62,480 nucleotides of DNA, filler included, from Hausera hauseri (GCA_046269625.1; 10 parts of 10 records of this genome joined end to end with filler, not necessarily neighbours in it), one strand, 5' to 3'. Counted from the first letter of the whole stretch, positions 15,940 to 57,183 are shown. Made by a program: numbers and translations. The notes: a model not told the origin generated them from the letters alone.

Positions 15940-16374
15940 ATGTCTTTGGAAAATAACTCAGAATGTTACAGTTCCGAGTCTCTAAAAAAGCCATGGTACC
16001 GCGAATATTCGCTCAGAAATTCCCGGTTGTATAATGGATGCAACTTACATTGACGTAAGCGGTCAAAATCAAACGGATGAAATATGGTCTATTGGTGAAA
16101 AAGATGTGCCGATGAATTGGATACAATGGAAGAAACAATTAGAAAAGTTGACAGTGATTTGGTGTTGAGTAACGATATACGAGATACATCGTCGATTTTT
16201 CTTAAAGGAAATATATCAAAAATTATCAGTACACATGGCGGAGAAACAGCAGAAGCAGCAGTTTTGCCACCGGAAGGAGCTAAAGGCTACCTAACACTGA
16301 AGCTCAAAGGATTCAAGGAAAGGAGCGGCGTTACATCCTCAATATGGAAACTGGGGAAGTTTCCTATGATTTAA
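15940..16374 (+). pseudogene. Polinton accessory gene convergent with polB (possibly an OB-fold ssDNA-binding protein)
   Basis: Homologous to 58281-58774. C-terminal GYLTLKLKGFKERSGVTSSIWKL has an alternating beta-strand pattern. Confidence 0.4.
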
Positions 16375-16669
16375 CTGACTGTGTGTGTTGTGATTTTAGT
16401 TTTCCTCCGATCAATAAATAAATGTATTCGTGGTACATATTTTGTTATCGCGTGCAAAGTTATTGTTTCACTTTTATTTCTATCTTAATAATAATAGGTT
16501 AAGTAACGGAAAACAAAACACAAGACACTGAACAAAGTACATTACTAACATTAAAATAAAACAATGTACAAAAGATAATCATTGTCAATAATTGTCACAA
16601 TATCCAGACCAGATTGAATTGCCTGCATCTGATCTGATCTGATCTGACACCACCGAACTTGTTTTATTT

Positions 16670-19600: not shown

Positions 19601-19917
19601 CCTACATCAGCAATAAAATCTTCCGAATACGGTACGGATCGATGTGACAGGTACCATTGTTTCCTGTCACCTTCAACGTTTTCAAATTCTGCAAGTGCAG
19701 AATATTGCACTTTGCAGTAGTTGAGTTTGAATTTCTCTACCTCTAATTCCAACCGGCTGCGCACACTGGACGGAACATGTCTCAGCTGTAGTTTTGTTGT
19801 CCCCGACATATTTACTTTCATGTCCTCGTACGATTTGTTTGGATCGTACTTGACAGTAATAAAAGGTTCCGGGACAAACGTAGGCCCGTTTACTGTGCAG
19901 CGTTGTGGTGATGCCAT
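16670..19917 (-). pseudogene. polB: Protein-primed family B DNA polymerase (Polinton family 2), degenerate
   Basis: FERRNPTLSINVF, YVMYADIEA, DHDHFTGRYLVAACNSCNL, FHNFRSYDCH, AGIRGGM, KLKNNSLF, CFKDESEG, DDKR. Confidence 0.92.
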
Positions 19918-21153: not shown

Positions 21154-22851
21154 CTCGAAAGATTTAGTAGTAGTAGTAGTAATTGTACAATAAAAAAAGA
21201 ATAAAAGTTTGATGTGAACGTTTTGTTTTCTCATTACTCGGAAAGAGTTAGGTGGGAAAAGGTGTTGTTCAAAAACTAGGTCACACAAAAAAATTTTATA
21301 GGTAGGGAAATGGTACCGTCCGAAGTGGGTAAATTAAACAAAAAGAAATTTAATAATATGTTAAAATTAATACTAATGTCAAAATTATTAAAGGAAAATT
21401 AAAAATAAACTAACATTCATCTTCTGTTGTCGCAAATTTTCGAAATGACGATAAACTAAGTGCAGTGGTATTTTATATGTTATTGATGTATTTGTTAGTG
21501 TATGTCTTGGTACTACTTTACTGACAAGCACTGTTGACTTTAAAAACACTGACTCTAGAAAAAAACTACATCTAACCAAATGTCCATTATTTTGACACAC
21601 TACCCTTTACACCACTAGTAATAAAACGAATCATGAGGAAAAGTACGACATTTTCATTAGTATGAGTTTCTGCATGCACAAACACATGCTTTACGTCAAA
21701 ACTCACTATTTCGTTTTGATTACATGCATGCACATTTTTAGTCTGGCGCGTAATGCACACTTGTTTTACGTCACGCCTCACTATTGCACGTGTCAACTTG
21801 TCGTACCTGTGCTCAAGATGATAATGATGATGTAGTAGATTTTGAAAAATTTGCTGCGACTTTTAAAACATTTGCGACGACTCGCATTTTGTGATTTTGA
21901 TGACGATGANNNNNNNNNNNNNNNNNNNNNNNNNNNNNNNNNNNNNNNNNNNNTTAATTAATTAANNNNNNNNNNNNNNNNNNNNNNNNNNNNNNNNNNN
22001 NNNNNNNNNCATATTTGCAGTAGCAGAATTATACAAACATGGTAACATTTAACAAATCAATTATTATCTCACCTGAAGGATTATACCTTACTGCTTCTAT
22101 ACACGTGGAGACATCTCAAACATTGAGCAGAATTCACCGTAAGCGCACAAGTAGCTGATATACAAGAAGCGCCTTGATTTCGGATGGGAATATTTCCAAG
22201 ACAACGAAGACAGACAAGGAACATAATGTTTTAGGCCGTGGAACAGTTGAAGAGGAATAGAACCAACGCCAGTCAAACAGAGCCATCGATTAGCCACTGT
22301 ACAAAAAACGTGTGTTTCAACACACTACCGGCTCCGCATTCTCCTGAAAAAGTGCATCTGCTAGACCGGTCTACCCGACAGTGAAACATATGCCAAAGTA
22401 CATAAAAACATACTCCAATTCTTTGATGGCGGTTGGATTCTATCGAGTGCACAGCCCACTTATTTGTTTATCTCCATCCACTCAATTCGTTTTTGTGAAT
22501 TATCTCTGTGAGGAAGTACCAGATGTTGCCGGTATTTCTCGGAACAATTTCGTCATTGGATTTTTAAAATCCTCTTTATTTTGAATTAGATTTAAATTCA
22601 AATCCTTTAAAAAGAACCCAAGTACTGAAATGACTCTTAATGAACCGAGTATTCCTCCAAACAAATTAAGTTCTTCCAATACGTTAGTAAAAACTGATTG
22701 CATTAGTGTATCGAAATATGAAAACACAGTAACATCAAATATTTCCAACAGTCTAAAGATTACCCCACCTGTTACATTGTCAACTTTCTCAAATTCTTTT
22801 GTCAAGCAAGAACCAGCTAGAACAAATAGTGTTCAAAATGTTACAAAACCC

Positions 22852-23412
22852 CATGGATGTATTTATGTATTCCCTTATAATGATTGTACTGGACATTTTT
22901 CGGTTGTCAAAACATTCAAAACGGTCGGTACGCCATTTCCCATGCAGGAATTCGATGGGAAATTATTAGTAACGATCAATGCATCAGTACAACTCATCGA
23001 TTTGACGAAAGATGATTTGCATGTCATTTGTCGATACGATGAGAATATTATTGCATTGTTTCTTAAACGAAAGGATGATTTCATTCTGATCGGTGATTTG
23101 ATGAGATCTGTGACGTTATTGCGATATAAACCGAATGTTGTTCATTTTGAATTGATTGCACAACATCGGGCACCACATTGGACAACAGCCATTGAAATTA
23201 TTGATGATGACAAATTTCTTTTTGATGAAAATAAAATGAATATGTTCGTTGTCAATAGGGATTTTGATATTGCCTCTACGGCAGCTGGTGATGGGGCTAG
23301 ATCAGCTGATGTGCCGATGATGAAGGATGCGCGATTTAAAATGAGTGAATATGCATCAATGCATGTTGGACAGGTTCTCAATAAGTTTATGGCTGGAAAC
23401 ATACTCATGCAA
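22852..23412 (+). pseudogene. DDB1: DDB1 C-terminal beta-propeller fragment
   Basis: MQEFDGKLLVTINASV, NIIALFLKRKDDFILIGDLMRSVTLLRYKP, PHWTTAIEIIDDDKFL, MHVGQVLNKF. Confidence 0.9.
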
Positions 23413-25136
23413 TTTTTACTCGATGAATACTCCATCAAATTAAAAAATTCATCAAATCAAAAACAAAAACTTCAACGGAAAATTGAACAAAAACCAACCA
23501 ATTCTATTCAAGACAAAAAAGTCTTGTCGAGTAAACCGAAATTGATAAAATCCGACGTCTTTGGGAAACAGTCGAGTGTTGGCGTTTCAGAACGATTTTT
23601 CGAATTGGTTGAGCAAATTTGCGAATGGGTTGGTAGTTTGTCCGGAAAGGAATTGGTTGAACGATTGGGCGATAAATGTGGATTGATGACGGAATTATTG
23701 GTGGAAAAAAGTAAATTGTCCAAGTCCTGTAAGATTGATTCATTGAAATTTCATTCTCAAATCGAAAACCCTGTCAACGGACCAGTATTAACCAAACCGA
23801 AGTCAGTCGCAAGTGTTGACAAGTCGTCCGTATTGGATTCACCCGCGAAAATGAATGCAGCAATTCCACCGGAAGTTGACGAAAATGGAGACGTCGAATG
23901 GGAAAACGATGAATTTTTAAATTCATTCGATTTTGTCGAATTCGAAGAGACAGATCTTCATATGCTCAAAGGCAGTAACAATCCAACGAGTACTGTGAAT
24001 TTATTTAAAAATACAAAGCAGAGTGCTGATATGAATGGTGACACGTTTGTGCCAATAACTGAAAAGCAATCGAAATGTACTTCGTCAATAGAAGATTATG
24101 AGTACAATGAACATCCAAACGATGGTGAAACTGGTGAATTCTCTAAAGATTTTCCTCATACTCCGAAAATTATGCAAGCATTTCGAGATGTTTTCGGTTT
24201 AAAAGATTTCCGTCGAAATCAACGGGAAGCAATCAATTCGGCGTTGTTAAAGTTCGATACATTTGCGATAATGCCGACTGTTGGTTGGAGAAGTCTGTGT
24301 TATCAGCTACCGGGCATTGTAACCGATGGTCTCACTGTTGTTATATCAACTTTGAAATCGTTGATTCACGATTAAGTGACCAAACTTCAGAGTTTTGATA
24401 TTAATGCTCGATCAATGACGGTGAGATGTCATTTTCTGAAATAGACAATGTATTTTGTCTATTACAGTCCGTCAAAATGGATGTTAAGTTTTTCTACGTT
24501 ACTCCAGAAAACATTGCAGCATCTCAAAAGTTAATAATTACGTTCGTTTCATTATATAACCGAAATCTTCTCGATCGATTTGTAATAGATGAAACATATT
24601 GCGTCAGCCAATGGGGCCATGATTGTCGGCCAGATTATCGAAATTTAAAATGTCTACGGGAGGAATTCCCCAATGTTCCAATCATCGCATTGACTGCTAC
24701 CGCTACGAATAAAGTTCGTCAAGACATAATTGATTTGATCAATTCGAAATTCCGTGGAGAGAGTAGAATTGTTTACAGTTTGTCACGGAAGGAGTGTGAT
24801 CAAGTGGCACAGGAATCGAACAAAGCTGGTTTGAAAGCAAAATCATATCTCGCCGGTATGGTTGATGGTGCACGATTAAAAGTTCAGCAAATGTGGATAA
24901 ACGAGCAAGATTGCAAAATAGTCTGCACTACAATTACATCTGGCATGGGTACTGATAAAGCGTATGTGAGATTCGTTATCCATTATTCGATCCCGAAATC
25001 TGTCGAGGGATATAACCAGGAAACAGGTCGTGCGGGACGAGACAGACTTCCGGCTGTTTGTATGTTGTACTATTACTACCAGGATGTTACACGAATGCGG
25101 CGTACGATTGAGAGCGATCAAACCGGAAATTGCGAA
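23413..25136 (+). pseudogene. BLM: BLM-type RecQ helicase fragment, inactivated and intronless
   Basis: BDHCT-like FELVEQICEWV, FGLKDFRRNQREAIN, mutated Walker A MPTVGWRSLCYQLP, DETYCVSQWGHDCRPDY, QETGRAGRD. There is an internal deletion after motif III. Confidence 0.9.
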
Positions 25137-25227
25137 TTCCAAAAGTCAGATAGGAAGTATGTTGAAGCCATGAAATGTTATTTGAGAGCATTGAAAATGG
25201 ATAAAGACAACATTCCGATATTGCGCG
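25137..25227 (+). pseudogene. NAA15: NAA15 (NatA auxiliary subunit) TPR fragment
   Basis: QKSDRKYVEAMKCYLRALKMDKDNIPILR versus recalled [29 protein letters not shown]. Confidence 0.75.
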
Positions 25228-25229
25228 GT

Positions 25230-28200
25230 TGGAGGGGAAACTCGGCCACCATTCATTTTGGTTCCAGCCCCGCCGGGGCGGGGATCCCGACGGTCAACCC
25301 TGCGCCGGTCGGTCGGACGGCGCTTATGCGTCGGCTTACATCACGCCCCCAGGCGCACCACTCCTTCCCCTTCTGTTTTCTTTTCCCTCAATAATACCCA
25401 CATTTACACAATCACTACATCACATCCACACATTCTCACCCTTTGTAGCTCCATTTCCTTTTTACTCAATTTTTCCGATTTTTATTTCACCCATAACGGC
25501 GCTATCATACCTCTCACCGGAATCCTACCATCTTTCTCAAGCCACACTTGCCTCCACATACATCTCCGTATCCGTGGTGGCATGAACTCTTCGCCAACCA
25601 TTGACACCACGGATGAAACCACCACAAAACCAATACCTGTTATATTACTCCTAAAACCCACTCCTAACTCTGCTATCAACCTCACAGCCATTACCTCTTC
25701 CGCGCCTTTCCATAACTGCACCGAGTTTTTTAGTGACAAACAAGGCTCCAGCAAAACTTGGTTACAATTTCATCAAATATGGCTACAGGCAAGTAACATT
25801 ACCGACTCTAACTAAAGCACATAATCTTCTCTTCTTATTATCTAATAATATCAAAACGCGCATTCACAACATCGTCGAAATTTTCGAACTTCCAGACCCA
25901 TATTCCCAACTTTCTAACGCAGTTCCTAAGATCACAGAACCTTCCATGGACACGATCAAACAACGTTTCATCCACGACAACGTTATAGGCACCCAACGGA
26001 CATCAGAATTCTCATGCACATTCTTAGCACACCTACATACTCTCGGCGTCACTAAGGAACACAATACAGACCTACTGCGCCACTATTTCCTCAATGCACT
26101 ACCTATCCAAATCCGAGCAATACTTACCGTGGTGGTAGACTCCACACCGCATGAGAAATTAGACGAATTAGTCGATAGGACAGACGATGTCCTACACGTA
26201 AATTCTCCACCAGTTGTTTCAGCAGCAGTTGCCGCTAACGATAATATATCCATAGAACAACAGCTTAATCAGCTACGTGATGAAAATATTGCATTGCATA
26301 AAACAATCAACAATATAAATAATAACTTAAACGAATTGTCTCTGGCCCGCCGAGAGGGTTTTGCCGCTGACCGCACCCGCTCTGCGTCTAGAAACTGCCC
26401 ACCATCGCCTGCGCGTTCGTCGATTTGCTATTACCACAGCAGATTTAATACTAATGCTCAGAAGTGCTGCTAGGGTGCAAATTTTATAACAAGAGTTTTT
26501 CCTCAGACACATTTGTTTGCATTTACCATGCAAGGTTCAAAAATCAGGTTCGTAAATGTATTCCAGGTTGCACTTTCAAATCAAACATAAACGACAGACT
26601 TACTGCCTTTCCTTTTAATAGTCGTCCTAGTTCACCCTTTCAAAAAATCTAAGTTCCCCGCCAGAAGGCGCGGCAAACTCTGGTAATGGCACTACTTAAC
26701 TTTCTGAACGCCGACACGTCTCTTTTGCTGTCTTTACACTAAAGGCTGCAATCACTGCTCCTACAACACAATCTGTTGATTTCCTTATCAATACAGGTTT
26801 AGCAATTTCTTTATTACCACAAACCTTTCGTGCACAAAATTCTCCATTCAAAATCAAACCCTTATACACTGCTTCAGGCCAACCGCTGCACATTTTTGGC
26901 GTGGCTAAATTATCTTTCACATTACCAAATTTTCTTTTACCTTTCCACTGGACGTTCACAGTCGTTAACGTCCAGACTGCAATTCTAGGATCCGACTTTC
27001 TCTCACACTATAATTTATTGGTTGAATGCAGTCAGCGATGTTTGAAAAACGGCAGCACTGGCGATATTTCTGGACATGTCTATAGCATTTCGACTACCGC
27101 GCAGTCGACCAGAACGCGGAGGTCAATCTTAAAAAATTCAATGAATAATTCGATTTTTTATAACAATAATTCCATTTGTAAATTTTAAAATAATAATATT
27201 GATATACGATCGAGGTTCGATGTCGATAATTGTGGTACTGCCACCAACGTTAATTCATTCGACGAAAATACTTTATTTAACACCATTTTCACTTCTACCA
27301 TCTTACACCAAATACCACTTGACTGCACGTCACCCAACAACTCACAAATGGCATCCGCTACTACTCAAGTTGTCTCACTACTTCCACCGAATCTCTCACA
27401 GTTACATACAACTTTACAGCAATTCGTCAACACATCATGTCCACTCGTACTTAAAAAAGACCGTACGTTTACTCCCGCAAACAGTACCTTACACCATATA
27501 GTTACACAGCTTTAACGACCAATACACCAAAAGGTACGATCTCTGTCACCTCGTCGTAGACAGGCCGTAGAAGCCGAATTTCTTGAGCTAGAACTTTCCG
27601 GCATAGTACGACGTTCCAAATCTCCTTGGTCACCTTTACATGTTGTACAAAAAGGACGGTACTTTTAGAGCATGCGGTGACTACCGACAGCTAAACAACT
27701 TTAATATCATGGATGCATACCCTTTAGCACTCATCAAGGATATCTTGCATCGCCTTAATTCAACCACCATCTATTCGACCATTGATTTAGCTAAAGCATA
27801 CCATCAAATACCGGTGGCACCCCAAGACATAGAAAAAACTTCTGTAACTACTCCTTTTGGTCTCTATGAATACCTGTTTATGTCATTCTGTCTGCGAAAT
27901 GCAGCACAAACTTTTCAGCGGCACATTAATTCAATTCTTTCCGATTTCCCATTTGCACACCCTTATATCTATGATATGCTAGTCGTTTCATCTTAGCCCA
28001 AATAACACGAGGAACACCTTTGCGCAGTATTCCAACGTCTTAACCACCATAATCTCAAAATCAATTTCGACAAATGCCATTTTTTTAAAAAGCGCATTAA
28101 CTTTTTAGGCTACGTTATTACACCAGACGGTCATTCGCCCCAATCAGACCGAGTCGAAGCTCTTAAAAATATCCAGTTGCCACGTACAACCATCGAAATG

Positions 28201-29720
28201 CGCAGCTTCCTTGGCACACTACACTTTGTACATAAATATGTACCATATTGCTCCGATTTGACAGCATCATTCGCACACCTAAGCGGCGGCAAAAAACATT
28301 AGTCAATCCAGTGGATACCTCAATTGGTTGACAAATTTGAAAAGCTACGCGAAGGAATCAAAACCGTCAATATCCTAGCTTTCCCCAAGCCTGATGCAAA
28401 ACTTATCCTTACTACAGACCTGTCAACCTCTGCAGTAGGCGCTGTACTCCGAGAGATCTACAAAAGAGAAAATCAACCACTAGAATTTTTCGCTCGCAAG
28501 CTAACAGCACCTGAAACCAGATATTCCACGTTCGATCGTAAACTATTGGCCACCGTTCTCGCTTTAAAGCATTTCTCACATCTACTTGTCGCTCGTCATT
28601 TCACTCTACAAACCGATCACACGCCCTGACCTAACATCATGGCTATGAAACACCCTTCCACTTGCCAAGAACGACAAACATCATACTTATCGACATTTAA
28701 CTTCGATATTAAACATATTAACGGGGTTAACAATTTGGTTGCTGACTTTTTTATCTAGGTCGGTTAGTTCGATTAATTTTTCACCGATCTTTACGCAAGA
28801 CCAACTTCAACAGAACCAGCCGCCTCAGGACATGCTCAATTCTTTTAAATCTTGCACAATCGTTGACGGCGTGGCTTTAGACACCTCAAAACCAGGCCAT
28901 TCCGTAATAATTCTTGCACCATCATTGCAAAGGCAAGCTTTTCACAGCGTGCATTCACTACACCATCCTGGTGCTAAAGCCACTTTCCGTTTACTCCATC
29001 GACAAGTAATATGGCCGTCAATGCGTTCTGATGTGACAGGCATGGGTTAAGGAGTCTGTGGCTTGCCAAAAATACAAAACAACTAAGCATTTAAAGCCAC
29101 TACTATTCCACTTTCCTTGTACATCGCGTTTCGCGTCCGTGTATATCGACATCGTTAGCCTTTTCCTCCAGACAACGGTCATCAATTAATTCTCACCATG
29201 ATGGACCGTTCCTTGCGATGGCCATCCCTCTGCGGAGCACAAACACCGACACTATAGCTGATGTTTTCATTCGCACATGGATTAGCAGGTTTGGATCCCC
29301 TCGTTTCATCATCACCGACCAAGGCCCAAAATTTGAATCCAACCTGTTTAAATCCCTCGTCAATCGTTTGGGGATCCATCATATACATACTACACCTTAC
29401 CACCCACAATCGAACGGCTTACTGGAACGTTTCCACCGTACTTTGAAAACGTCCCTACGAATTCTCGCAGAGTCCAACAGTAGCTGGACCAATCTTCTCC
29501 CATTCGTTCTGCTCGGTTGGCGAAACACCCCATCGACCTCTACAGGATGTTCACCTACTGAGGCACTATTTGGAACTCCCGTTCGCTCTCTATTCGAACT
29601 AACTGCTTTGGACGACACTCCCACGGAAGAGACGATTCGGGCGGCGCAAAATCACTTTGTCGAGGTCAGTAAGGATTCGTTTTGCAGGTTACTGCACAAA
29701 GATAAAACATACTTACCCGA
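25230..29720 (+). mobile_element. CsRN1-like Gypsy copy B: Ubl-gag-PR-RT-RH-IN, degenerate
   Basis: HIHLRIRGGMN (GG at 25576-25581), two CxxHx9Cx3C knuckles, ILGSDFL, RACGDYRQLN, YSTFDRKLLA, TTPYHPQSNGLLERFHR. Confidence 0.95.
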
Positions 29721-29820: not shown

Positions 29821-30850
29821 ATACAAAATCGATGTTTTGTGGTACCTTTCTTCTTAACCATGAGGACTGATAAATACCAAGATCTGTAGCTGGGCCTAAT
29901 TATATCCGCCTTAAGCATTCCTTCGACGTCTTTCGTTATTTCGGGTCTCAGTGAATGTGGTGCAGGATACCACTTTGGTATCTTCTGGTCTTCTAAATAT
30001 ATTTCCTCGTTTGACCCTGGCTTTTCCTTGAGTGGAATAGTTAGTTTTAATGCTTTCGCTCTTACTATATCTTCTTCATCTTTAGCAATAATTGATTTTT
30101 ATCGGCATAACAATTCGTAGAATCGACAATAAGATTCAGGAGAAAATTTAGTTTCGACATGAGGTGGAAATTCAGCATATTTATAAGGTTTCTCTTCAGT
30201 AGTTATCGACGATACCCTATACGTATCTCCTAAAGTAGTGTAGGCATGGATATTCACGGGGTCTGTGCATTATTCGCTATCCTGATCGGCACTCGACCGG
30301 AGTGTACCATTGTTAGTATGTTACTGAGTGTTATATTCGGATCTAACGTATATTTTGGTTCAAAATATACCGGCTGATCGTCATCTTGTTGTATTTGGGC
30401 ATAGATTATAACTTCTGTTCTTGGCGAAATATTCTCGTATACGGATATCCAGACCTCTCCAAATTTTCTATCCTTGGCGTTTTTTACGCCTTCATTTGGT
30501 CTAATTTCGAATAGCTTTCCTGTTTGCAGGTCAATTGCTATATTTGGTAGTCTTTTCAATGGATCGCATCCTAGTACTACGTCATCAGTTAATTGCTCCA
30601 TAACTGCAAATTCGTGATGGAAAACTGTCCAACTATTTGAACTTCTGGCTTCCATTTAAACATTGGTTTTGACATTTGACCAAATGCTCCTTTACTTCCT
30701 GGATCTTTCGTAGATGGTGGGTGTAACTGTTCTCTCAGCGTTTGGAGTATTGAATCATTTTTAACGTAAGACATCTCAGATACTGTATCTATTAATGCGT
30801 AAACTTCCCTATTTTCGATAGTGATCTTGGCAAAAGGTCTTCCTGCTATT
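29821..30850 (-). mobile_element. pol: Ty3/Gypsy protease, dUTPase-like spacer and RT N-terminus
   Basis: RPFAKITIENREVYALIDTVSEMS, VVLGCDPL, ISPRTEVII..VPIRIANN, YPAPHSLRPEI..MLKADIIRPS..VKKKG..RFC. Confidence 0.88.
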
Positions 30851-31282
30851 ACTGTTCCGGAACAGTTCGGCTTATCCTTTGAGCATTTCAGCGCTGATAT
30901 TTTGTGTCAATTAATTCGGATTTCCGGAGAGGATATTATATTCTCTGATAAATGTCATAATTCTTCGTTTGTGTATAATTCGTTGATTTCTATGTGTACT
31001 TCTTCTGCTTCATGTGTACTGATTAATGGCTCTCGATTATTAGTATGTAATTTAGTATTCTTGAAAGTTTTTAACCTTGGGTTGTCCCAAACCATTGATC
31101 TAGTTTCTATATTTCGAGGTTCTCTCAGCGAACACAACATCTTTTGACCGTCTGCGAATTGTCGATAACACATTTTCCGTAGGATTCCGTAACGTTTTGT
31201 TCCTTCATAAGGATCTTCTACATTAATTGTTCTTTTATAGATTTCCGTCTGATATGAACTCATAGATCGTTTGTCAAAATCT

Positions 31283-33184
31283 TCATAGAATGGTGCGGTA
31301 GGAGGTATGTCTATTTATTCCTGAAGGCACTTGTCCTCCCTTAGGCTCGTAATCATATAAATTATTTCTTCGTAACTTCGGTTTTGTAAGTTTTCGCTTT
31401 CGCAAGAATATAGGCCTTCCTTTTCGTTTACGATTATAGTAGCCAACATGGCGTTCTACGTCCCATTTCCATCTATTTTCTTCGTATGATTTCAAGAATT
31501 TTCCAAAAGGCGTTATGATCGCAGTCAGTATTTTACATGAAAATCCGGTTAATATAAATATTTCGTACCCATTTATTACCGCTTGGATGACTGCCTTAAT
31601 CATTTGTATCAGAAAATATATCGCTAAGAATCAGGATGCTGCTTGTCCGGAAATCAAAAATCTTCCCAAAATTTTGTAGAGTATTTCTGTTGTTACTCTC
31701 TGATAATGGTTTACGCCAAGTAATGATTCCCATTTAGCCTGATATCTGGTGTCGTCCACTACAGACGCCATAGCTCGATTCAGCTCATGGGTTCGTTGTC
31801 GTGGAAAAGCAAGGAATTGTCTAAAGGCCTCGATTTCCTTCGGCCTGTATATACCTTTTGACGAGGTGTCTTGAAATTTATCGTCTGTAATTCCTTTTGC
31901 TAGATTTGTTCCTGTCAGCTTGTTAGGAGCGGCGGTAATACCTCCATTAGGTAAACTAACCCAGTCGGTTTCGCTCCGTCTAAACATCGGTTCTCCTAGG
32001 CTTGCTTTACAATCCTTAAGAATGGTTGGTTGTGTCGCATTATCTAACAACACTCTTGTCAACGGCGTAGCTAGTCTCGGAGTATTCTGATAAATAACAG
32101 GAAGTTCTTGGATGCAACGTTTTTCTTCTACGTTGATGGGTACTTCTCTCTTTTCACATTCATAGGTTAGCAACACTTCGCCTGAAACTCGACCGAAAAT
32201 TCCTTCTCTCATGGGAATTATTGGAGAAGCTAATTCTGGGTTTGCATATATAAGAGACATTTTAGTTCTCATAATTTCGGTATCCAATTTACAGTCATTC
32301 ATTATCATTTTATGGTACAATTCTGTTATTTCGACTTGTCCTTTATAGTAGAAATAATCGTCCCTATTTTTCAGGTAGTCCTCAATCCGAACGTCTTGAG
32401 TTTCCAGTTTGTAAGTTTTCGTGTTTATTTCTGTTTTGGCTACAAAGAACGCTTTGTAGTTCGCAGCGAACATTACTACATCGCAGTGCGTGTCATAATC
32501 TCTTTCTTAATAAATTTTAGTCCGTGCGGGTCGGAAATTAGTATAGTCGGTGTCGGCTGTTCCGATACATCTTCGCGTGTTCTCGAATTAGTCTCCGATT
32601 TACCTACGTATCGTTTTAAGGTAGTTTCGTGACACTATAGAACATTACTTTTTGTGATCGCATGTCTGATTCATAGAAATCCACAACCACGACGTTTGAC
32701 TCTAATCCTTTCCCGGTATGGTATTCTGCTCCAATACAATGTCTGCTATGCATATCCAACCTTCCAGCTACTACTTTGTATGCTCTGATTATTTCCCTGG
32801 GTTGCATTTCCAGTTGCATGCTGTCCCATTGTATCCTTCCGGTTTCCTTAGCTTGTTTGCTTTGTTGACGCTCTAAATTCATCGGAATTAAAGGAGTGGT
32901 GGGCTTAATTATGGAAAGTGTCCGTGTATTAGTCCACAGTGAAAAATACTGCGTGACCGTTTTAGCATGCACTCCATTCCATTTAACGATATCAATTCTT
33001 GTTGCTGATACAGGAAGTAACTTTTCTCTCGTGTTTCTAGTTTGTGCAGTCTAGCATCCTCGTAGGCTTCTAAGTCCATTAAGGAATATCTCTGCCCTAA
33101 TTTAAACTTGCCACAATCATAGACGGTTACCGCACTTATATGCTTTATTAACATCATCAATGTAAGCAAGACAATTAGCCAATT
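31283..33184 (-). pseudogene. env: Chuvirus/herpes gB-like class III envelope glycoprotein
   Basis: Signal peptide then VYDC..YSL, ECMLKRSRSIFHCGLIH, GEVLLTYEC, CIQELPV, ATPLTRVL, KGIYRPKEIEAFRQFLAFP, and a C-terminal TM with INGY. Confidence 0.85.
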
Positions 33185-34631
33185 TGATTCATTTTTCTGA
33201 CCTCCAACGTCTGACATTGTCAGGCTACGTAACATATCGTCGAGTTTATTGTTGCTTCGTTTGTCTTCTTCCGTGTCAAATAGTCTCGCCCAATTTACTT
33301 CGCAAGGCATTCTTCTTGCTGCTTTCCGTGCTAAGTTTATTGCCCGATTGATTTCATTTTCTCGGTTTGGATTTATTTTGATGGCTAAGTACAGCAAAAC
33401 TTTTCTCAATTCTTCATTCGTGTTTTCTACCATGATCTTTTCTATTACTGACTCATCGGTTAAGTTACTTTTTGATAGTTTGAAACGTGAACTTTTCATC
33501 ATTTTGGCTGCATCAAATATTATCTTTTCTTTATCGTCTAACACATCTCCTCGAAAACTAGAATAATTTACAATTCGTATTAAATTTTTCATTAGCTCGC
33601 TTAATTCTTCGTTATCTGGGCTAAGGGTTGGAATCGACATCTGCTTCAGTTCCTTAATTAACTCTCCATTGTAATCCACTTCTTCTCGCACCTTCCTAGG
33701 TCTGCCTACTGGACGTTTTGGTCTTAGGCCTTTAGGGTTTGCTTCGCTTAGTGGTACTAAATTTATGTCGTATTGTTCTTTATCTTCATCCGTTTGTAAA
33801 TACTCGAAATACAATGCAGCGTCTCGGACTCCCATCATTTGTCCTACGCATTGTTCTGTTTTGGCTTTACGTGAAGCTTCTTCTTTTGTTTGTTCATTAG
33901 CAATTACTACCACTATCCGATTTGTTTCGTCAGGAATAATCCCAACGTCTATTAATTGTTACAAGTCGTCTAATATTCTACCTCTAAAATAAAATCTGTA
34001 GTTTAACTCGTCTGTTCCACCATTATTTACCAACCATTCTCTTACGTCCTTTACGTGGGAATGTGTAGTCAACTCGCACTCCTTTTCGTCCATCCATTGG
34101 GCTGACACCATTACTTTCATCGTCACTTCGGGTCTAGCCCTTAAGATCTTGGCGTACTTCCTTATCAAAAGTTTCGGCACCGTACTATAAATCGTGTTTT
34201 CGCTGGATAGTTTAGTTCAAGTTAGAACGAGTTGTCGCAGTTTATTTTCGGTAATATTTACGTTAATTAATTCAATCAAATCCTTTTCAGTAGCATTTCC
34301 ACATTGAATCTCCTATCCTTGGGGCATGTTTCTATTTCGTTAAGCTATACTGCAGTCATGGGTTTTCCAGCGAGTATTTCGTCAAAGTATGCATCCCATT
34401 CGGGTTCGTTTCCGACGTCCGGAAGTCGGTAATCTACAAAAGCCGTATTGGCTTTTTGAATGTTTTCTCGAATTTCCTTTAATTTAGGTTGTATTTCCTT
34501 CATTTTCGTAGTTCGAAAACCTACTCCATTTCTATGGGCATTTGAAATCATATTCAACAATTCACCGAATTTATTAGAGCCGATCAGTCCTTTCTGGTGA
34601 TAATCCGTTAATTCCAGAATCGTATTCGTCT
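33185..34631 (-). pseudogene. Polyprotein segment upstream of env with a ubiquitin-like domain (33899-34120) and AT-hook (33692-33721)
   Basis: MKVMV..HVKDVREWL..GTDELNYRFYFRGRILDDL*QLIDVGI and PKRPVGRPRK, in the same frame as the env N-terminus. Confidence 0.65.
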
Positions 34632-34731: not shown

Positions 34732-35595
34732 TTTCTTTACAGCTTTAGGGATCAATTGGGCAGCAATGCTGCGCTATACTGGTATTAGGCTGCAGATCAT
34801 TAAGGATTATGATGATTTTTATAATCGAGAGAGGCATTAGAGGTAGAATATGCCAGGCCATTCATCGGTATAGCGAGGCCAACAACAAGTATATGACCCA
34901 GTATGATCTATTTAAGGAATCCTCATATATATCATACATGGATGTTAACAACTTGTATGGATATGCAATGAGCGCCCCATTGCCATACGATAACTTCAAA
35001 TGGTCGAGAATACTGAAAACATCCCTATAATGGACTGGATCCCATTGGAGATACGGTCTGTATACTGGAGTAAATATGGAATATCCGGCTTCTATCCACA
35101 CACGGCATCAACAGCTGCCTTTCCCCCCTAAGAGCAGGCCTCCGTCCCATGGAAGGCATAGAAAGCTGCTCTAGAAAGCTGCATAGAAAGCTATACAACA
35201 ACCGTGTTTTTGGCAAGACAATGGAAAATATCCGCAATAGGATCAACATTGAGCTAGTATGAGACTGGAGGCAGGCAAAGAAACTCATTGTCAAGCCCAA
35301 CTACCACAGCAGCACTATATATGCGAAGAACTTGGTAAGCATCCATATGCTGAAAACAGCAGTTGTATTCATTGGCAATATTAAATCTATCAAAATCTCT
35401 AATGCATCAATTCCATTATGACATTATGGTCCCCAAGTTCAAATCCATGCAGACGATGTATATGGATATTGATAGTTTCATCTATCAGATCAATACAGGG
35501 GATATTTATGATGACTTTGCCAAATTGACTCAACATGTGGATACCACGGAGTATCCGAAGGAACATCCCAACTATTCAATAACAAAGTCCTAGGG
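34732..35595 (+). pseudogene. polB: pPolB family 1 fragment, cut at 35595 by a TGTGG repeat
   Basis: IERGIRGRI, YMDVNNLYGYAMS, YMDIDSFIY, YPKEHPNYSI. Similar to 13800-14700. Confidence 0.92.
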
Positions 35596-35697
35596 TGTGG
35601 TGTCCACATCGGCTAATGCCCTTTGGCTCATTTGGTCTGGCACAGCCGGGCATCCGCTGTCGCAACGTCGGGCCTATAGGTGGACCATGATCTTCCA
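35596..35697 (+). repeat. TGTGGTGTCCACA terminal repeat copy
   Basis: Aligns with 9390-9495 and 12375-12487 (GCCCTTTGGC.CA.TTGGT...CACAGCCGG.CATCCG). Confidence 0.75.
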
Positions 35698-36501
35698 AGT
35701 ATAGGATTCAAGCAAAGAAAACGAAACAGACAAAATCAACACGAATTGGTGACTTTGATTGCTCTGCCGCGTATTACACCATTGCTAACCTATTAACTAC
35801 TATTGTCAGTCGTTGTAAAATTATCATCCATTCCATTCTTCAATTTCAGTTATCGGTTTCGACTGCTACGGCATATAATTACATATTGATGCCGAAATGC
35901 ATGTCCCGATTATTGCTGAGTCATCACCCTACTTGCATCATTGACAATTCATCTAGCAAGTCCATTTATAATTCGTCGGATTTTGTGACACAAAAATCGG
36001 CGTGTCGAGACAAGACAAATATGGATGTGAGTAATCATACCAACAACAACAATAATAATCATAATGGCAACGATCGTTCTGTTGTTCCATCATCGTTACC
36101 CACCGATTTCCTGGTGAATTGTGATCTGTGCATCGGTTTGGAAATTTTACAATCGATTACTTAAATCAACCTTTTCGTGCATTAAAATCGTATTTACATG
36201 TCTAATGAGCGCAAGTCTTTTTTAAGTCTAAGTTCGCTAATGATAATGATGCTTCATGTCATGGTTACCAGTCATGCTCTTCGAGACTTCCAATATCGAT
36301 TTGGCATGACTCCGATAGTACTATCAATTTTACTGGTTTTGTTGACTCAGGAAGTAATTGGTCAGCATCCGTGGCAATATATTGGTATTATAATCGGCTG
36401 GGTATGTCAACAATGCCGGATCATGTCGTTCCTGCTAAGTATTTCGCCCTACTTCCAATTCCACAGGGATCACAGAGCAGTATAATAACGATATTTGCAA
36501 T

Positions 36502-36830
36502 TTGGAAGACGATGGTGGGCACATCGTTACTCAGCGTTCCGTGGTACTAAAGTCGGCTGATAATATTCCAGTGGAACGAGGGATGACAAAAATGACCTTA
36601 GATTGTACAGATGCATGCCGATGTCATTTGGGCAAGTGGGCTAAATTAGTGGCAAAATTTTTTTCGTTTTTAGCACTTTTCGGTGCTTTAATTGTATTTT
36701 ATGTGCTACTTTGCGACTTCTTGCATTCTGTTTTTGGTTATATTTACGATTTTAGCATGAACAATATTCATACGGGTAATTTTGGATCATTGTTTAATAG
36801 ATCGTTTGATTATGTAATTTGTACAAGCAT
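36502..36830 (+). pseudogene. SLC38A9: SLC38A9-like amino acid transporter fragment
   Basis: VLKS..DCTDACRCHLGKWAKLVAKFFSFLALFGALIVFYVLLCDFLHSVFGYIYDF. Confidence 0.7.
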
Positions 36831-37135
36831 GCCGTCCTTTCCAACACACAACGCTTTCTATGAATTTTTTTTGAAGAATTGATTCCGTCAGACTATGATA
36901 TTAATTCTGTGATAGTTGTTTTAATAAGTCAATTAAATGTTTACACTTTGAAATTCTCAACCATATTACTTCAAAGATTATTGAAATTGTTTTTAATTCG
37001 TTATTTTGATCTCACGATTTGGATTTTGCTAAACAATTTACAGTTAACGTTGAGGTTTTAAGAGTGATCGCCTCCATTTTCGAAATTGAATTTTGATTAT
37101 CCGATTAGAACTTCAGGCTGTTTTAGATTTTCTGA

Positions 37136-37540
37136 ATGAACTACAAATTTTATTTGATGATACCGCTTAATTATTCGAAAGATGGAAGTTGTATCGATGG
37201 TATTTACGACGAATTTGCTGACTACGTTGAAGAGCGAGCAGACAACGAATACCATTTTCAGTGTAAATATGGAAAACTGCCAGGTATAGCATTTGCTCAC
37301 CGGTTTGAGAAATTCGAAGAACGATTTTTAATTCATTTGGAATACGCAGTAATTGTCGTGACTCCTAAGTCGGAAAGGGCCATGTTCAGATTTCTGCCGC
37401 AATTATTGATGTTTTTATCCACGCGGGGTATTTGGAAAAATCGGTTCATTTTTATTGTTCTTGGAAATGAAAGAATCGGCGAAAGTCTCGTTTACCGTCT
37501 GCCGATTCGGTTTTCGTTGGATAATTGGAACTTAAAATAG
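37136..37540 (+). CDS. Open 134-aa ORF, divergent TIR-like domain
   Basis: Alternating beta/alpha pattern: FYLMI..YSKD, LPGIAF (BB-loop-like PG), AVIVVTP, NRFIFIVL. Confidence 0.4.
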   Translation: MNYKFYLMIPLNYSKDGSCIDGIYDEFADYVEERADNEYHFQCKYGKLPGIAFAHRFEKFEERFLIHLEYAVIVVTPKSERAMFRFLPQLLMFLSTRGIWKNRFIFIVLGNERIGESLVYRLPIRFSLDNWNLK

Positions 37541-37619
37541 TGTCAGAAATGCACAAATTTTGTCACGAAGGTAACATTTTTTTCTAACATTGGTAATATT
37601 GTGAATTTTAAAACTGCTA

Positions 37620-38330
37620 CAAAATACGACAATATTGTGCGACTCCAACAAACTGTACATATCATTATCGCTACCCCAGGAAGGGTTCATGACCTAATTA
37701 GGAGACATTATTTCTACGATTTATAATTTTCAAAGCGTTCTACATTTCATAATAAGCAAATTCCCAAATCATCGTCAAATTATCCTCCACTCTGCTACGT
37801 TTCCACACACTGTACTGTCATTTCTAAGAAAGCACATGAAGAATCCTCATGAAATCAATTGAATGGACGAATTGGCATTGAAAGGCATTACACAATAGTA
37901 CGCCTATGTGCAAGAAAGACCAAGGCTTTACTGCTTAAATACGCTCTTTTCTAGATTGCAGATTAATCAGTCAATTATTTTTTGTAATACAGCCCAAAGA
38001 GTTGAATTATTGGCAAAGAAAATAACAGATCTCGGTTACTTGTGTTATTATATTCATGCAAAATGAATCAAGTTTACCGAAACCGAGTTTTCCACGAATT
38101 TCTTAATGGAAACTGCAGAAATTTGGTTTGTACTGATTTATTTACTCGAGGTATTGACATACTGTCAGTTAACATTGCGATAAATTTTGATTTTTCCAAA
38201 TATGCTAAAATATCTACAGAATTGGTCAATCTGGTTGTTTTCGGCACCTCGGTATTGCGATAAATTTAATAATGTACGATAATAGATGTTCATCAAAGAG
38301 CATTAAAACCCAACTCAATACGCAATTTGA
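37620..38330 (+). pseudogene. DDX6: DDX6/Me31B/Dhh1 DEAD-box helicase fragment
   Basis: [77 protein letters not shown]. Confidence 0.93.
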
Positions 38331-38339
38331 ATCCAACCA

Positions 38340-38703
38340 AAATCTTATCCCTTCAATCAACGCATTAGCCAATGTTTCAAAATGGCGTGTCCGATTAGCA
38401 TTTATACAAACCCCTCTTTTTTTAACTGGTTTGTTAAGCCTTCAAGTTTTTTCTGAAGATAAATTAACGACGTTATGTCTAAGTTGGCTTGCCGATCCAG
38501 TTTACGCTCTTAGAGAGGCTGCCACCAATAACTATGTTTTAACAAAGATAGTCAATATGTCACGCGGTCACAACCACCTGCACAGGATGATTTGTCTTCA
38601 CACTACACAAAATCTATCTGAAATTTTGACGCAAAAAATGATTCAGATACATTCTCTCTCAATGTTGAAGACATTGGTCCCTGGTAATGTTCTCAATATT
38701 CGG
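38340..38703 (+). pseudogene. PPP2R1A: PP2A scaffold A subunit HEAT-repeat fragment
   Basis: KWRVRLA, DKLTTLCLSWLADPVYALREAATNN, NHLHRM. Confidence 0.88.
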
Positions 38704-38794
38704 CTTAAGAGCGAATTATCGAGAAAGCACATCATCTACCTTGATGATGTTGACAATTCTCAGTCACACTTCATCACACCTTGGGTGAGAAATT

Positions 38795-41700
38795 CAGTTA
38801 CTCAGAAATTTGAAACTCGCCGAGGTGAGACTGAGGTCCCGGCCGTCCACCCTTCACCATAGGGTCAGACGGCGCCGTTCTTTGCCGCGCCACGACACGC
38901 CCACAGCCACACGACCAATCCTTATCTCCTTTTCTTTTTTCTCAACAACAGACACATTTGCACACATACAGTAGTACATGTAAACGCAGCTGTCATCCAT
39001 AACATCATTTCCACTTCTCTTCACTCCTCTGATTTCTATCTCACACAATGGATTCGTAGTGCCTTTCGCTGGACTCCTCCAACCTTTCACAACTTGTGTC
39101 TGCCTTCACATTTACTTCCGTATCCGTGATGGCATGGATTCACCACACACAACTGATACCACGGACAAACCCACCAAACCAGAGATCTCCATCACTTACT
39201 TACCCAAACAAAGTGCTTCAAACATTTTGACACAACACACTCCTCATTCATTCACCCTGCACAGAATACTTCCTCTACAGCCAAAACTCTACTCAGACGT
39301 GGCTAAAACTGCATCAATTCTGGCTCCAATCATAAAACGTCGTCGACTTTTTATTCAAAGCCAACAACATTTTTTTTGTTTACCAGCTTCCATCAAAACT
39401 AAAATTACCAACATCATCGACATCCTTCATCACACCGAACCATATACTCAACTTTGTAATGCTGCTGTTAAGCTCACTGAGCCGCCAATCGACTCAGTCA
39501 TTCAAAGACTCTTCAACGACTACGCTATGGGCCTACAGAAACCTTCTGAATTCTTGCGTACACCTTTGTCTTACCTCAAAACCCTTAGCGTAACATCTGA
39601 GCATAGTCCAGAAGTTCTTTGTCGCTATTTTTTAAATGCACTGCCCCTTCAAATAAGAGCTTTGCTTACTGTGGTGGAAGACTTCACGGCAATGTAAAAG
39701 CTAGCTAAACTGGCGGACAAGGCCTATGAAGTACTGCACCCACATACAGCACCAACTACCTCTGCGGCACTAACAACAGAACAACAACAACAAAATACAA
39801 TGCTTCAGCAACAAATTGCGCAATTACGCTCGAAAAATGAAATGTTACAAAAGACAATTAACTACATAAATGAGAAATTAAATGAGTTAACGCTGCCTCG
39901 ATGCGGTTTTTCTAGGGCTGCTTCCCCCAATGTATTTCATCAACGGTTGCCTTCGCCGGCGCGTTCATCTATCTGCTACTACCATAACAAATTTGATAAT
40001 AATGCTCAGAAATGCTGCATCGGTTGTAAATTTTACTCCCCCGGTTTTAACACAAATAACATTGTTTGCATCTATCATTCGAAATTTGGCACAAAAGCAC
40101 AAAAATGCCTACCTGGCTGTAACTACAACACACAATAAAACCAACACTACTATGCTCACACAAAACAGTAGGTCAGACTCACCAGCTACAAAAAACTGAT
40201 TTCGCCGCTAGGACACACGGCAAGTCCTAGCAAAGACAACAACCTGCAAAAAGATAGCCGATACATTTCTTTTGCTATATTCACGTTGGAAGCAGCAGTC
40301 GTCACTCCAATAAAGCAAAACATTAACTTTCTTATAGACACCGGCGCAGCAATCTCTTTACTGCCACCAACACAACATATCCAAAACAATTTCACTTCAA
40401 AATGCAACTGTTCACTGCGTCCGGTGAACCTTTACAAATTTTTGGTGTTACCAAATTAACGTTCATTCTTCCACATTTCCCAAATAAATTCACTTGGAAA
40501 TTTACAATAGCCAATGTACGCACACCTATATTGGGTTCAGATTTTCTGTCCCACTACAATTTACTTGTAGATTGCAAACGATGTTTTTAAAGAGCGGAAA
40601 TAATCTTAATCAAATTGGCGGCATTTCGGTGACCACCCGAGCGATAGCTTCCAACAAGTCAATACTGAAGCAAACGACTTCCGATTTAAATTATTTTTAT
40701 AATAATACATTATAGAAAAATTTTTACTACGGTAACAAATACGATATTGCAACTGCGTGGCACATATTACTGATAGCACAGCTGCCAACACCATCTTTAA
40801 CACGAACATCCTGCACCAAATACCACCTAGTCACAACACCTTGTCTACAACTCATACCTCAACTGCATCCAGTCACGATGCATCGACACCATCGGATAAC
40901 TTTTCATCGTTGCCTTCTGATCTACAGCAATATATTTCGTCTTCCTACACGCGTCTGTTGCAGAAGGACAAATCATTCGTACAACCTCAATCCACCTTCC
41001 ATCACATCGTAACAGCATATCAAAGACCAATGCGGTAAAAGGTCCGCCCGCTATCGCTTCACCACAGACAGGCACTGGAGGCTGAGTTCCTCGACCTTGA
41101 AAAATCAGGCATAATCAGAAGATCCAAATCCCCCTGCTTTTCACTGCTGCATGTGGTTCCAAAAAAGATGGCACCTTTCGCCCATGCGGTGATTACCGCC
41201 AACTCAACATCATAACAACAATAGATGCCTACCTTCTACTATTAATCAACGATATGCTTCACAGGCTCTATGGTGCGACCATTTTCTCCTGCATTGATTT
41301 ACACAAAGTATACCACAAAATTCCGAGGACCCCATCAGACATTCGGAAAATGGCTGTCATTACACCTTTTGGCCTTTTGGAGTACATTTTCATGCCTTTT
41401 GGACTCTGTAGAGCTTTCCAGATCTTCCAAAGCCATAGTAATACAGTTCTCTCAGGTTTAGACTTTGCTTATTCCTATATTGCTAGTATCCTAATTGCAT
41501 CATCTTCCTCGAAACAACACTCCGAACACTTACGTCTAATCTTCCAACGCTTGCACCAAAACAATTTGCAAATTAATTGCGCCAAATTCTCTTTTTTCAA
41601 CATAAGGTCAACTTTCAAGGACATGTTATTACCTCCTCCGGACATTCACCTCAGCCAGAGCGCATCACACAGCTGAAAAAAATACAACTACCACGTACAT

Positions 41701-42646
41701 CCACAGAGATGCGTTCTTTCCTCGGAACGTTGCACTTTATTCATAAGTTTATTCCACACTGCTCCACTCTAACCGCTCCATTCGCATTACTAAGCTCTGG
41801 AAAGAAAAAACAGCCTATTCAATGGACCGCCAAACTAGTCAACGCTTTCGATACCCTCAAAGACAATTTAAAAATCGTAGAAATCCTGGCCTATCCAGAC
41901 TCCCATGCAGAACTCTTCCTAATTACGGACGCATCCACAACAGCTGCAGGTGCTGTCCTCCATCAGGTTAAAAATGGATCCCATGAGCCATTAGAATTCT
42001 TCTCTCGAAAATTCACAGCACAAGAGCAAAGATATTCCAGCTTTGACCGAGAGTTGCTTGCAATGGTCCTTGCCGTAAAACACTTTAAACATCTACTAAC
42101 TGCACGAACGTTTACAATAAAAATGGACCACAAGCCCTTGCTTCAAATTCTCACCATGAAATCGCCTTCTCCACGTCAGGAGAGGCAAATATCGTATATA
42201 TCCACATTTAATTTTGTAATTAAGCACCTAAACGGAGTCGAAAATTTAGTAGCTGACTTTTTGTCCCGATCTGTCAGCTCGATTGATTTTACACGAATTT
42301 TTCCTCAATCCAAAATACAGCAAAACCAGCCACGTTCAGACATTTTTAAGTCTTTTAAATCGTGCAAAACTATCGACAGTGTGGCCTTTAACACCTCCAA
42401 ACCTAATAATTCTAAAGTCATCCTTTCTGAATCGCTTCAAAAAGAAGCATTCAACAACATTCATTCATTGCATCATTCCGGTGCCAAGGCCACTTTTCGA
42501 CTCTTACAACGCCAAGTAGTATGGCCGTCGATGCACTCTGACATGCAGGCATGGGTTAGGCAGTGTGTAGCATGCCAAAAATACAAAGTTACTAAGCATT
42601 TAAAGCCACCACTATATCATTTTCCCTGCACGTCTCGTTTTGAATC
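38795..42646 (+). mobile_element. CsRN1-like Gypsy copy C: Ubl-gag-PR-RT-RH-IN(start)
   Basis: FRIRDGMDSP (GG mutated to DG), double CHCC knuckle, FLIDTGAAIS, MPFGL, TDAS, YSSFDRELLA, HSLHH..CVAC. Confidence 0.95.
40190..40231 (+). promoter_or_regulatory. -1 ribosomal frameshift signal (A AAA AAC plus hairpin) at the gag/pol junction
   Basis: The heptamer directly precedes the gag stop and a -1 slip opens the protease frame. An 8-bp stem GCTAGGAC/GTCCTAGC follows. Equivalent sites are present in copies B, D and E. Confidence 0.8.
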
Positions 42647-47622: not shown

Positions 47623-49110
47623 TTTAGATTGTTGCCTATGCTAGAACTTGCCGTATCCTAGCGGTGAAATCAATTTTTTGTAGTTGGTGAGTTAGGCCTA
47701 CTATTTTGTGTGAGCTTAATAGTGTTGGCTTTATTATGTGTGTTGTAGTTGCAAGCAGGTAGGCATTTTTGTGCCTTTGTTCCAAATTTTGCGTGATAGA
47801 TGCAAACGATGTTACTTGTGTTAAAATCGGGGGTATAAAATTTACAACCGATGCAACATTTCTGAGAATTGTTGCCAAATTTGCTGTGATAGTAACATAT
47901 AGACGACCGCGCGGGCGAAAGCGACCGTCTTTGTCGTTGACGAAATATATCAGGGGAAGCAGCCCTAGAAAAACTTTGTCGAGGCAAAGTTAATTCATTT
48001 AATTTCTCATTTATATTATTAATTGTTTTTTGCAACATTTTGTTTTCTGTGCGTAATTGCGAAATTTTTGCTGTAGCATTGCATTTTGTTGTTGGTAGTT
48101 TGTTGTTAATTCCACAGAGACAGTTGGTGCTGTGTGTGATTGCAGCACTTCATAGGTTTTGTCCGCCAGTTCGGCTAACTTTTCCAGTGCCGTGTAGTCC
48201 TCGATCACAGTGAGCAAAGGTCTTATTTGAAGGGGCAATGCATTTAAAAAGTAACGACGAATTTCTGGACTATGCTCAGATGTTATGCCAAGGGTATTAA
48301 AGTGAGACAAAGATGTGCGAAAGAACTCAGACAGTTTCTGAAGGCCCATGGCGTTGTCATTGAAGAACTTTTGAATGATAGAATCGATTGACGGCTCAGT
48401 AAGCTTAAGAACGGCATTATAAAGTTGAGCATATGGATCGATGTGGTGAAGGATGTCAATGATATTCGTAATTTTGGTTTTGGTAGAAGTAGGTAAATGG
48501 AAAAACAGGTTGTTGGCTTTGTATAAGGGGTCCACGACGTTTTGTGATTGGAGCTAGAATTGGTGCAGTTTTAACCATGTTTGGGTAGAATTTTGGCTGT
48601 CGAGAAAGTATTCTGTGCAGGATGAATGAGTGGGGAGTGCGTGATGTACTTTGAAGCACTTTGTTTTGGTAGGTAAGTGATGGAGATCGGTGGTTTGGTG
48701 GCTTTTTCCGTGGTGTCTATGATGGGAGAGGAATTCATGCCACCACGGACACGGGGGTGAACATGAATAATGAAGGAAGACTGTGTTGAAGAAAAGAAAT
48801 CGGCAAGACTGTAGAGTATGAAGCCGTGATGACTGAGGAAAAATTCGTTTGTTTGTCGTAGTGCAGACATGATTGTACAATTGGATTATTTTGGTGTGTT
48901 GTGTTATTTCGTATGTTGTGGCATGTTCATTATTTAGAAGGAAAACGGAGAAAGTGGGTGTCTGATAGTCGGGAGTGTAATGCGGGACGAGTACATGGCC
49001 AATCGCCTCTCTCCCCTGCATGGGAACATAGACCGGGTGCACGGTATCCCGGGGACGGGGCCGCAATTTGCGGGAAGGGCCGCACTCGTCGCCGAATTTG
49101 GTCGGGCGGC
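47623..49110 (-). mobile_element. gag: CsRN1-like Gypsy copy D: Ubl-gag (truncated by contig end)
   Basis: IHVHPRVRGGMNSSP (GG at 48739-48744), double CHCC knuckle, AAAAAAT slippery site. Confidence 0.92.
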
Positions 49111-56410: not shown

Positions 56411-56419
56411 CGCTTTTTT

Positions 56420-57175: not shown

Positions 57176-57183
57176 GGAGCGCT

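Follow-up and report, generated by a model that had tools for sequence, protein, structure and literature searches.

The feature analysed here is a run of retroelement domains on the minus strand of a single 4.8-kb contig (29821-34631), within a 62,480-nt stretch of DNA (the window) made up of 10 short contigs joined by 100-base N-linkers. Along the minus strand, the contig carries a ubiquitin-like (Ubl) domain, a degenerate domain that is possibly Bcl-2-like, a signal-like segment internal to the frame, a gB-type envelope (env) ectodomain with its anchor and tail, a protease (PR), a post-PR domain, and the start of a Gypsy-type reverse transcriptase (RT) (Table 1). Because the feature is confined to this contig, the element is bounded on either side by the assembly, and the truncation of the RT is a contig end rather than a biological junction. 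The minus-strand translation is a succession of frame pieces; the seven pieces counted hold about 11 in-frame stops, their order implies 7 changes of frame, and env has lost about 60 codons, so that the copy is dead and unable to make protein. The original prediction held that only stops or single shifts part these pieces; such stops and shifts do part them, but env profile positions about 167-229 also lack a counterpart in the focal copy. The coding strand is evenly A-rich (0.36-0.41 across six segments), and blastn revealed no internal repeat in the contig. Gag-capsid and CCHC profiles had no match anywhere in the contig, and no MATH, BIR, or ankyrin domains were seen in it. Since gag lies upstream of env in the relatives, it is presumably located beyond the contig end at 34631.

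Table 1. Features of the focal contig, listed in minus-strand order.
Feature	Coordinates	Strand	Evidence
Upstream coding-like fragment, mostly open frame, reaching the contig end	34289..34631	-	no credible Pfam match; no gag/CCHC profile match
Small helical domain, then ubiquitin/SUMO-like beta-grasp (Ubl about 34123-33896), two in-frame stops	33896..34288	-	relatives-only profile E 1.4e-8; AF2; Foldseek
Basic GRP motif, presumably AT-hook-like	33692..33718	-	sequence; similar motifs in P0003, P0004, P0007
Helical domain where relatives carry a Bcl-2-like domain; degenerate, without GGW motif	33250..33520	-	leave-one-out profile E 0.14
Internal signal-peptide-like segment, in frame with upstream domains	33131..33184	-	hydropathy 2.23
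Fusion ectodomain of class III (gB-like, Monjiviricetes/chuvirus-type) in four frame pieces, with a gap of about 60 codons near 32615	31660..33130	-	PF24664; ordered profile matches; L002 fold
Membrane anchor with one in-frame stop (about 31663-31574), then a weaker second hydrophobic segment (31561-31505)	31505..31663	-	hydropathy 2.06 and 1.79
Basic tail, then linker leading into the protease; the frame changes once, near 31300	30841..31504	-	anchor-to-protease distance; even composition; overlapping records
Retropepsin-type protease, degenerate, motif LIDTV, two frames	30527..30840	-	relatives-only profile E 0.0025 and 1.2e-4
Post-protease domain, at the place of the dUTPase-like domain in the available description of Burro	30260..30433	-	relatives-only profile E 4e-8
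Ty3/Gypsy-type RT N-terminus, cut by contig end	29821..30122	-	profile E 1e-14 at 30122-29823; tblastn to P0009, P0018, P0151, P0154

The env pieces were placed in order by relatives-only profiles (33121-32930, 32915-32628, 32601-32488, and from 32500 on), and Pfam PF24664 (Monjiviricetes fusion glycoprotein) matched the N-terminal part with E = 2.7e-5 and the C-terminal part with E = 2e-42. These ordered matches and PF24664 uphold the minus-strand order first proposed for the locus, namely signal peptide, ectodomain, TM, basic tail, linker, PR (LIDTV), and RT start. The proposed class III identity of the env was borne out on the ectodomain of L002, one of two related loci described below, which is 29% identical to the C-terminal half of the window env (E = 9e-50). 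Its fold, predicted from 78 sequences with a pLDDT of 90.5, matches post-fusion herpesvirus HSV-1 gB (best E = 6e-14, TM about 0.44), so the gB-type post-fusion fold of class III fusion proteins (gB/G/GP64) is predicted for this relative rather than for the broken window copy. Searches of viral and genome contigs, and word-based protein and PDB sequence searches with env, gave no match. A hydrophobic run precedes the (Y/F/W)DC start of env in all 15 relatives printed (16 scanned). Hydropathy across the 16 relatives is 1.79-2.43 for the anchor and -0.28 to 1.58 for the next segment, versus 2.06 and 1.79 in the window.

Coding does not start at the signal peptide, as had been supposed; the frame of the signal-like segment runs about 1.1 kb further upstream, through the Ubl domain. 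This pre-env region aligns with the same region of L002 (E = 3e-10), and the relatives-only profile that matches it was built from six segments. The AlphaFold (AF2) model of the whole pre-env region has a mean pLDDT of 51, reaching about 70-90 over the Ubl, and Foldseek matched the Ubl model to SUMO1/ubiquitin (probability 1.0, E = 5.5e-4); profile, AF2, and Foldseek together place a ubiquitin/SUMO-like domain upstream of env, as in the Burro elements discussed below. The basic GRP motif had no Pfam match. At the Bcl-2 position, the leave-one-out match of the window is weak, and it is the best of 60 frames and at the expected place. A seven-member profile of this position is led by Bcl-xL PDB entries (E = 0.03), and one relative, P0006, matches Pfam Bcl-2 with E = 9.6e-4, under the cut-off. 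The Bcl-2-like assignment is weak, as a five-member profile had put the unrelated bacterial regulator CsvR first (E = 1.7e-4), with Bcl-2 only at E = 3. The AF2 model of the window has low confidence over this helical domain, and ESM Atlas searches returned no usable match for the pre-env region and only uninformative phage clusters for the helical domain of L001.

Downstream of env, Pfam alone left the PR and RT pieces of the window undetected, and neither the dUTPase profile PF00692 nor any other Pfam entry matched the post-PR domain. A PR followed by the start of a Gypsy-type RT in the window, with the complete PR-RT-RH-IN order in the relatives, fits Ty3/Gypsy (Metaviridae). Between env anchor and protease, no gag, LTR, or repeat was found by profiles and blastn. 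The anchor-to-protease distance is 288 codons, and in 16 relatives 124-457 codons separate the anchor from the first protease motif; the linker shows an even base composition, and tblastn of the linker against the relatives gave no significant match. The claim that no gag zinc knuckle lies between env and PR is thus supported by the lack of a gag/CCHC profile match, the lack of a repeat, and the even composition, and an LTR or gag junction sought between 30850 and 31283 left no trace as a gag match, repeat, or composition step.

Relatives were collected using phmmer with the C-terminal half of env, resulting in 391 proteins at E <= 0.001, the best 150 of which were examined; the closest env relative among the long matches listed has 35% identity. 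Eighteen proteins, picked as top-ranked or long, were put through a domain scan. Env is followed by PR and/or RT in one chain in 11 of the 18, stands without pol domains in four, and follows pol domains in three; P0151 and P0154 are two additional env-first chains. Gag or zinc-knuckle matches lie ahead of env on the same chain in P0007, P0013, and P0022, a CCHC-bearing N-terminal Gag being seen in these three and in L002, and in P0022, as in L002, a single uninterrupted ORF covers gag, env, and everything up to integrase. Such protein-level counts favour single ORFs, because a frameshifted relative would show as env alone. The loci L001 and L002, fetched at the DNA level by a scan with one env protein, are free of this bias, and both (2/2) run from env to integrase in one open frame. 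The single ORF of L002 (3,703 aa) starts gag-like and then has a pair of CCHC knuckles, copies of the Ubl, env, two protease motifs, RT, RNase H, and integrase, beyond which it still continues. The 3,425-aa open frame of L001 is cut at its 5' end and is one frame from upstream of env. No LTR pair was found within L001 or L002. The predicted placement of env before pol in one polyprotein is supported by both loci and by the 11 of 18 selected proteins.

An env tree (FastTree, midpoint root) was computed from 141 of 156 rows, with 15 dropped for matches shorter than 170 residues. The window env falls in a 24-tip clade (support 0.95) together with 13 env-first proteins, nested in a 28-tip clade (0.86) that contains all 15 env-before-pol proteins and neither of the two env-after-pol proteins; 11 of its 28 tips are env alone, mostly short pieces.

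The relatives also show features of their own. Several carry more than one retropepsin copy per chain (up to 7 motifs in P0151 and 4 in P0007; also P0002), and P0151 (4,844 aa) has ankyrin and C2H2 matches, ankyrins being described for Burro1 too in the available literature. Accessory ORFs lie downstream of the polyprotein in L001 (10617-12107 and 12229-12666) and L002 (11375-12043 and 12085-13473); one of the two in each locus encodes a DEDDh exonuclease (RNase_T, E = 1.4e-5 and 1.1e-3) and the other probably a coiled-coil protein, and their order is reversed between L001 and L002. P0001 (HBK71150.1), an env-PR-RT-IN polyprotein, is filed as a protein of a Flavobacteriaceae MAG, which suggests animal DNA in that bin.

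The contig is very probably a decayed Ty3/Gypsy piece, likely from a flatworm Burro-like element, with Ubl, gB-type env, and then PR and RT in one run, whose intact relatives have Gag, the domains just named, and the whole of Pol in a single polyprotein, for which threading through the ER membrane is predicted. With the gene order unchanged, it is improbable that ribosomes in this sub-family pass from the env tail into Pol through a programmed frameshift near 31300. In favour of it, a frame change is present between tail and protease, other copies differ from the focal copy around 31301-31314, and the protein counts lean towards single ORFs. Against it, plain decay is evident from the six further frame changes and the roughly 11 stops, L001 and L002 are single-frame from env to integrase, and Burro is described as one ORF in the available text of PMC6431247.

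The sources cited here by PMC number were available in part. Burro1-4 and GYPSM1 are giant Gypsy LTR retrotransposons of planarians (PMC6431247; Grohme et al. 2018 cited therein), recognised by LTRs, a size above 30 kb, and 2-3 CCHC knuckles in Gag (PMC6431247). Their one ORF of 4,873-5,140 aa encodes Gag with CCHC knuckles, Ubi/SUMO-like, BCL2, env, PR, dUTPase-like, and RT domains, and was called the first case of an in-frame env between gag and pol; the env has matches to mononegavirus fusion proteins, and the 2019 review also likens it to gypsy Env (PMC6431247). Decaying Burro fragments occur in Dugesia japonica (PMC6431247), Burro1 transcripts are under PIWI control (PMC8532177), and the IAP region of Burro1 is said to protect stem cells (Lee 2026, via PMC13465017). 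GAG-ENV-POL errantiviruses with an HSV/gB-type env have been described from Nematoda, Bryozoa, and Platyhelminthes, with nine flatworm elements listed, and are not monophyletic (PMC13524379). The words 'polyprotein', 'ubiquitin', and 'Burro' have no occurrence in the main text of PMC13524379 as available. The original prediction had implied that env before pol was new; the order, including an in-frame env, is already published for Burro (PMC6431247) and for the GAG-ENV-POL errantiviruses (PMC13524379).

Going by the published description, Burro and the focal element agree in the order of a Ubi/SUMO-like domain, env, PR, and RT, with a possible, degenerate counterpart at the BCL2 position and a post-PR domain where Burro has its dUTPase-like one; the in-frame env and the one ORF are shared by the intact relatives. 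As in Burro, env lies between the gag-side domains and the protease in the window (ordered profile matches), and the same arrangement is seen in L001 and L002. The window copy differs in being broken and partial with a degenerate Bcl-2-like domain, and it is likened to Burro by published description, not by sequence. The flatworm, nematode, and bryozoan errantiviruses agree with the window clade in gene order, gB-type fold, and an ectodomain set between a signal or TM and a TM; those of PMC13524379 are intact elements, while the window copy is decayed. In the supplement to PMC13524379, the env rows of Smed_errantivirus_1-6 (S. mediterranea) have motifs in common with the window clade by eye. 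These rows are, we infer, Burro elements, a name absent from the available text of the paper.

The nematode non-canonical ERVs (Sacco et al. 2022, J Gen Virol) have a metavirus pol and an env before pol that was captured from an RNA virus (via PMC13524379), and Anakin-type BEL/Pao elements carry a chuvirus glycoprotein (PMC7642597). The nematode env rows are distant from the window clade by eye, and the host is a nematode. The nematode elements reportedly hold a continuous gag-env-pro-pol ORF. Anakin-type elements share the glycoprotein family PF24664 but, in their description as available, have a BEL/Pao pol, and the two env-after-pol proteins fall outside the env clade of the window. In Anakin-type BEL/Pao elements, env follows integrase.

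The window element is a decayed, divergent member of the Burro-like, or flatworm GAG-ENV-POL, kind as published in the sources available. That it belongs to Burro in the strict sense is likely, as judged from features other than gag, LTRs, element size, and sequence identity to Burro. An origin in a different env-first lineage or host (nematode NERV-type or bryozoan), with a likeness to Burro in gene order alone, would fit with the non-monophyly of GAG-ENV-POL elements in the available text of PMC13524379 and with a best env identity of 35% among the long matches listed. Such an origin is very unlikely, given that the Ubl insert and Bcl-2-like position match the published Burro specifically, that by eye the nematode and bryozoan env rows of the supplement are unlike the window clade and those of S. 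mediterranea alike, and that a flatworm-type BLM lies elsewhere in the window. This BLM helicase piece, on a different and unlinked contig, groups with Fasciola, schistosomes, Macrostomum, and two further proteins (support 0.94, 33 rows). The grouping likely points to a flatworm host, without singling out planarians or any other order, though long-branch effects may contribute and the contig has no link to the element.

The focal stretch was matched by 15,867 records of sequencing run X1, which is possibly not independent of the window's source, 834 of them at >=99% and 6,849 at <90% identity, and by 1,070 records of run X2; the records of each run cover all 30 bins of the stretch. The focal element is a diverged, high-copy family. 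Summed depth is about 10-fold lower over 30787-31108 in both runs, a contig depth that cannot rank parts. In a set of 16 out of more than 17,000 pieces, the linker is covered by records that overlap, at 30655-31060 (1 difference), 30974-31297 (54 differences, and hence another copy), and 31007-31307, and no single record among these bridges anchor to protease. That the env end of one element was joined to the protease of another, in tandem or as a chimera, by deletion or mis-assembly is hardly credible: a short-contig assembly of a repeat this abundant and divergent and a linker without significant tblastn match to the relatives would allow it, but the nearest env relatives all share the order, the linker length is inside their range with no repeat or composition step, and the overlapping records span parts of the linker, one of them from another copy.

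Other contigs of the window hold further elements. Contig 1 (1-4039) encodes, at 440-4039 on the minus strand, the C-terminal half of an RT, RNase H, integrase, a signal-like segment, a probable ectodomain, and a terminal TM. Its composition is the same as that of the focal contig, and it groups on a long branch with the env-first proteins, not with the window's three other Gypsy fragments. It probably represents the 3' half of an element of this kind, although it cannot be tied to the focal copy; a profile of the relatives' post-integrase membrane protein left its counterpart in contig 1 undetected. The three other fragments are decayed members of another Gypsy family (contigs 22010-29720, 34732-42646, and 47623-57634), distant from the env-first clade, two of them up to about 90% alike in DNA. 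Directly upstream of one Gypsy fragment, an intronless DDB1 C-terminal piece (CPSF_A, E = 4e-31) shares its frame with the first part of a BLM/RecQ helicase, after which further BLM sequence comes (22585-25394, plus strand), a stretch that resembles fused, decayed retrocopies. A DDE_1 transposase piece is located at 8452-9021, and a long repeat is common to about 16100-19800 and 58470-62300.

Domain order, single frames in the relatives, and predicted folds are results of the analyses above; topology, cleavages, particles, and infectivity are inferred and are put conditionally below. Topology was read from Kyte-Doolittle windows only, a scan with background, since hydrophobic strands inside enzyme domains reach 1.8-2.1, and the positive-inside charge bias around the anchor was uninformative. 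In the 10 relatives whose sequence reaches from env to RT, an additional signal-like and anchor pair lies between the two in L001; P0151 has an extra signal-like segment there with a weak partner anchor (1.44). A further signal-plus-anchor pair follows integrase in at least five relatives (L002, P0001, P0003, P0151, and P0154). It delimits a second predicted type I membrane protein in the same ORF (signal-like segment, 240-350 residues, TM), at about 10010-10950 in L002 and at the C-termini of the other four; that of L002 had no Pfam match.

On the simplest reading, the hydrophobic segments are mostly paired as signal and anchor, so that Gag and Pol would stay cytosolic and Env would be luminal. 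In intact family members, Gag and the Ubl/Bcl-2-like insert would remain cytosolic, and the internal hydrophobic segment would open translocation, with signal peptidase likely cutting just before the (Y/F)DC start. The ectodomain would pass into the lumen until the anchor halts transfer, leaving the tail, protease, RT, RNase H, and integrase in the cytosol, to be freed by the element's own protease or proteases (1 to 5 protease motifs precede RT in the relatives), and particles carrying the gB-type fusogen would bud. The original prediction of Pol on the cytosolic side of the Env anchor is consistent with the hydropathy and stays a prediction. The second post-anchor segment (1.79 in the window), if membrane-crossing, would flip this parity. 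The model concerns the intact relatives, not the focal locus.

Pairwise threading and a second membrane protein after integrase were not found in the published accounts searched, which included the available text of PMC13524379 and PMC6431247; the figures of PMC13524379, Sacco 2022, Grohme 2018, and Lee 2026 may well contain them. It is possible, though doubtful, that Burro-like elements are enveloped retroviruses on a flavivirus-like plan, with one polyprotein crossing the ER in signal-plus-anchor pairs. A cut signal would then give Gag, with its Ubl/Bcl-2-like insert, a tail anchor that stands in for a matrix protein, Pol would be packaged 1:1 via the Env cytosolic tail without a frameshift, and the second type I membrane protein after integrase may be the attachment partner needed by a gB-type fusogen.

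The focal locus itself is of little weight, since the kind of element is already described and this is a single dead fragment of a family with many diverged copies. With it, the env-first order and the Ubl insert extend to families whose env shares only about 35% identity with any other sequence found, and this type of env is gB-like by predicted fold, as against the likeness to gypsy Env and mononegavirus fusion proteins given in the 2019 review. The locus raises the question of how a Gag-Env-Pol polyprotein is threaded, cleaved, and packaged, and whether planarian Burro makes infectious particles, for which the intact published elements are better suited.
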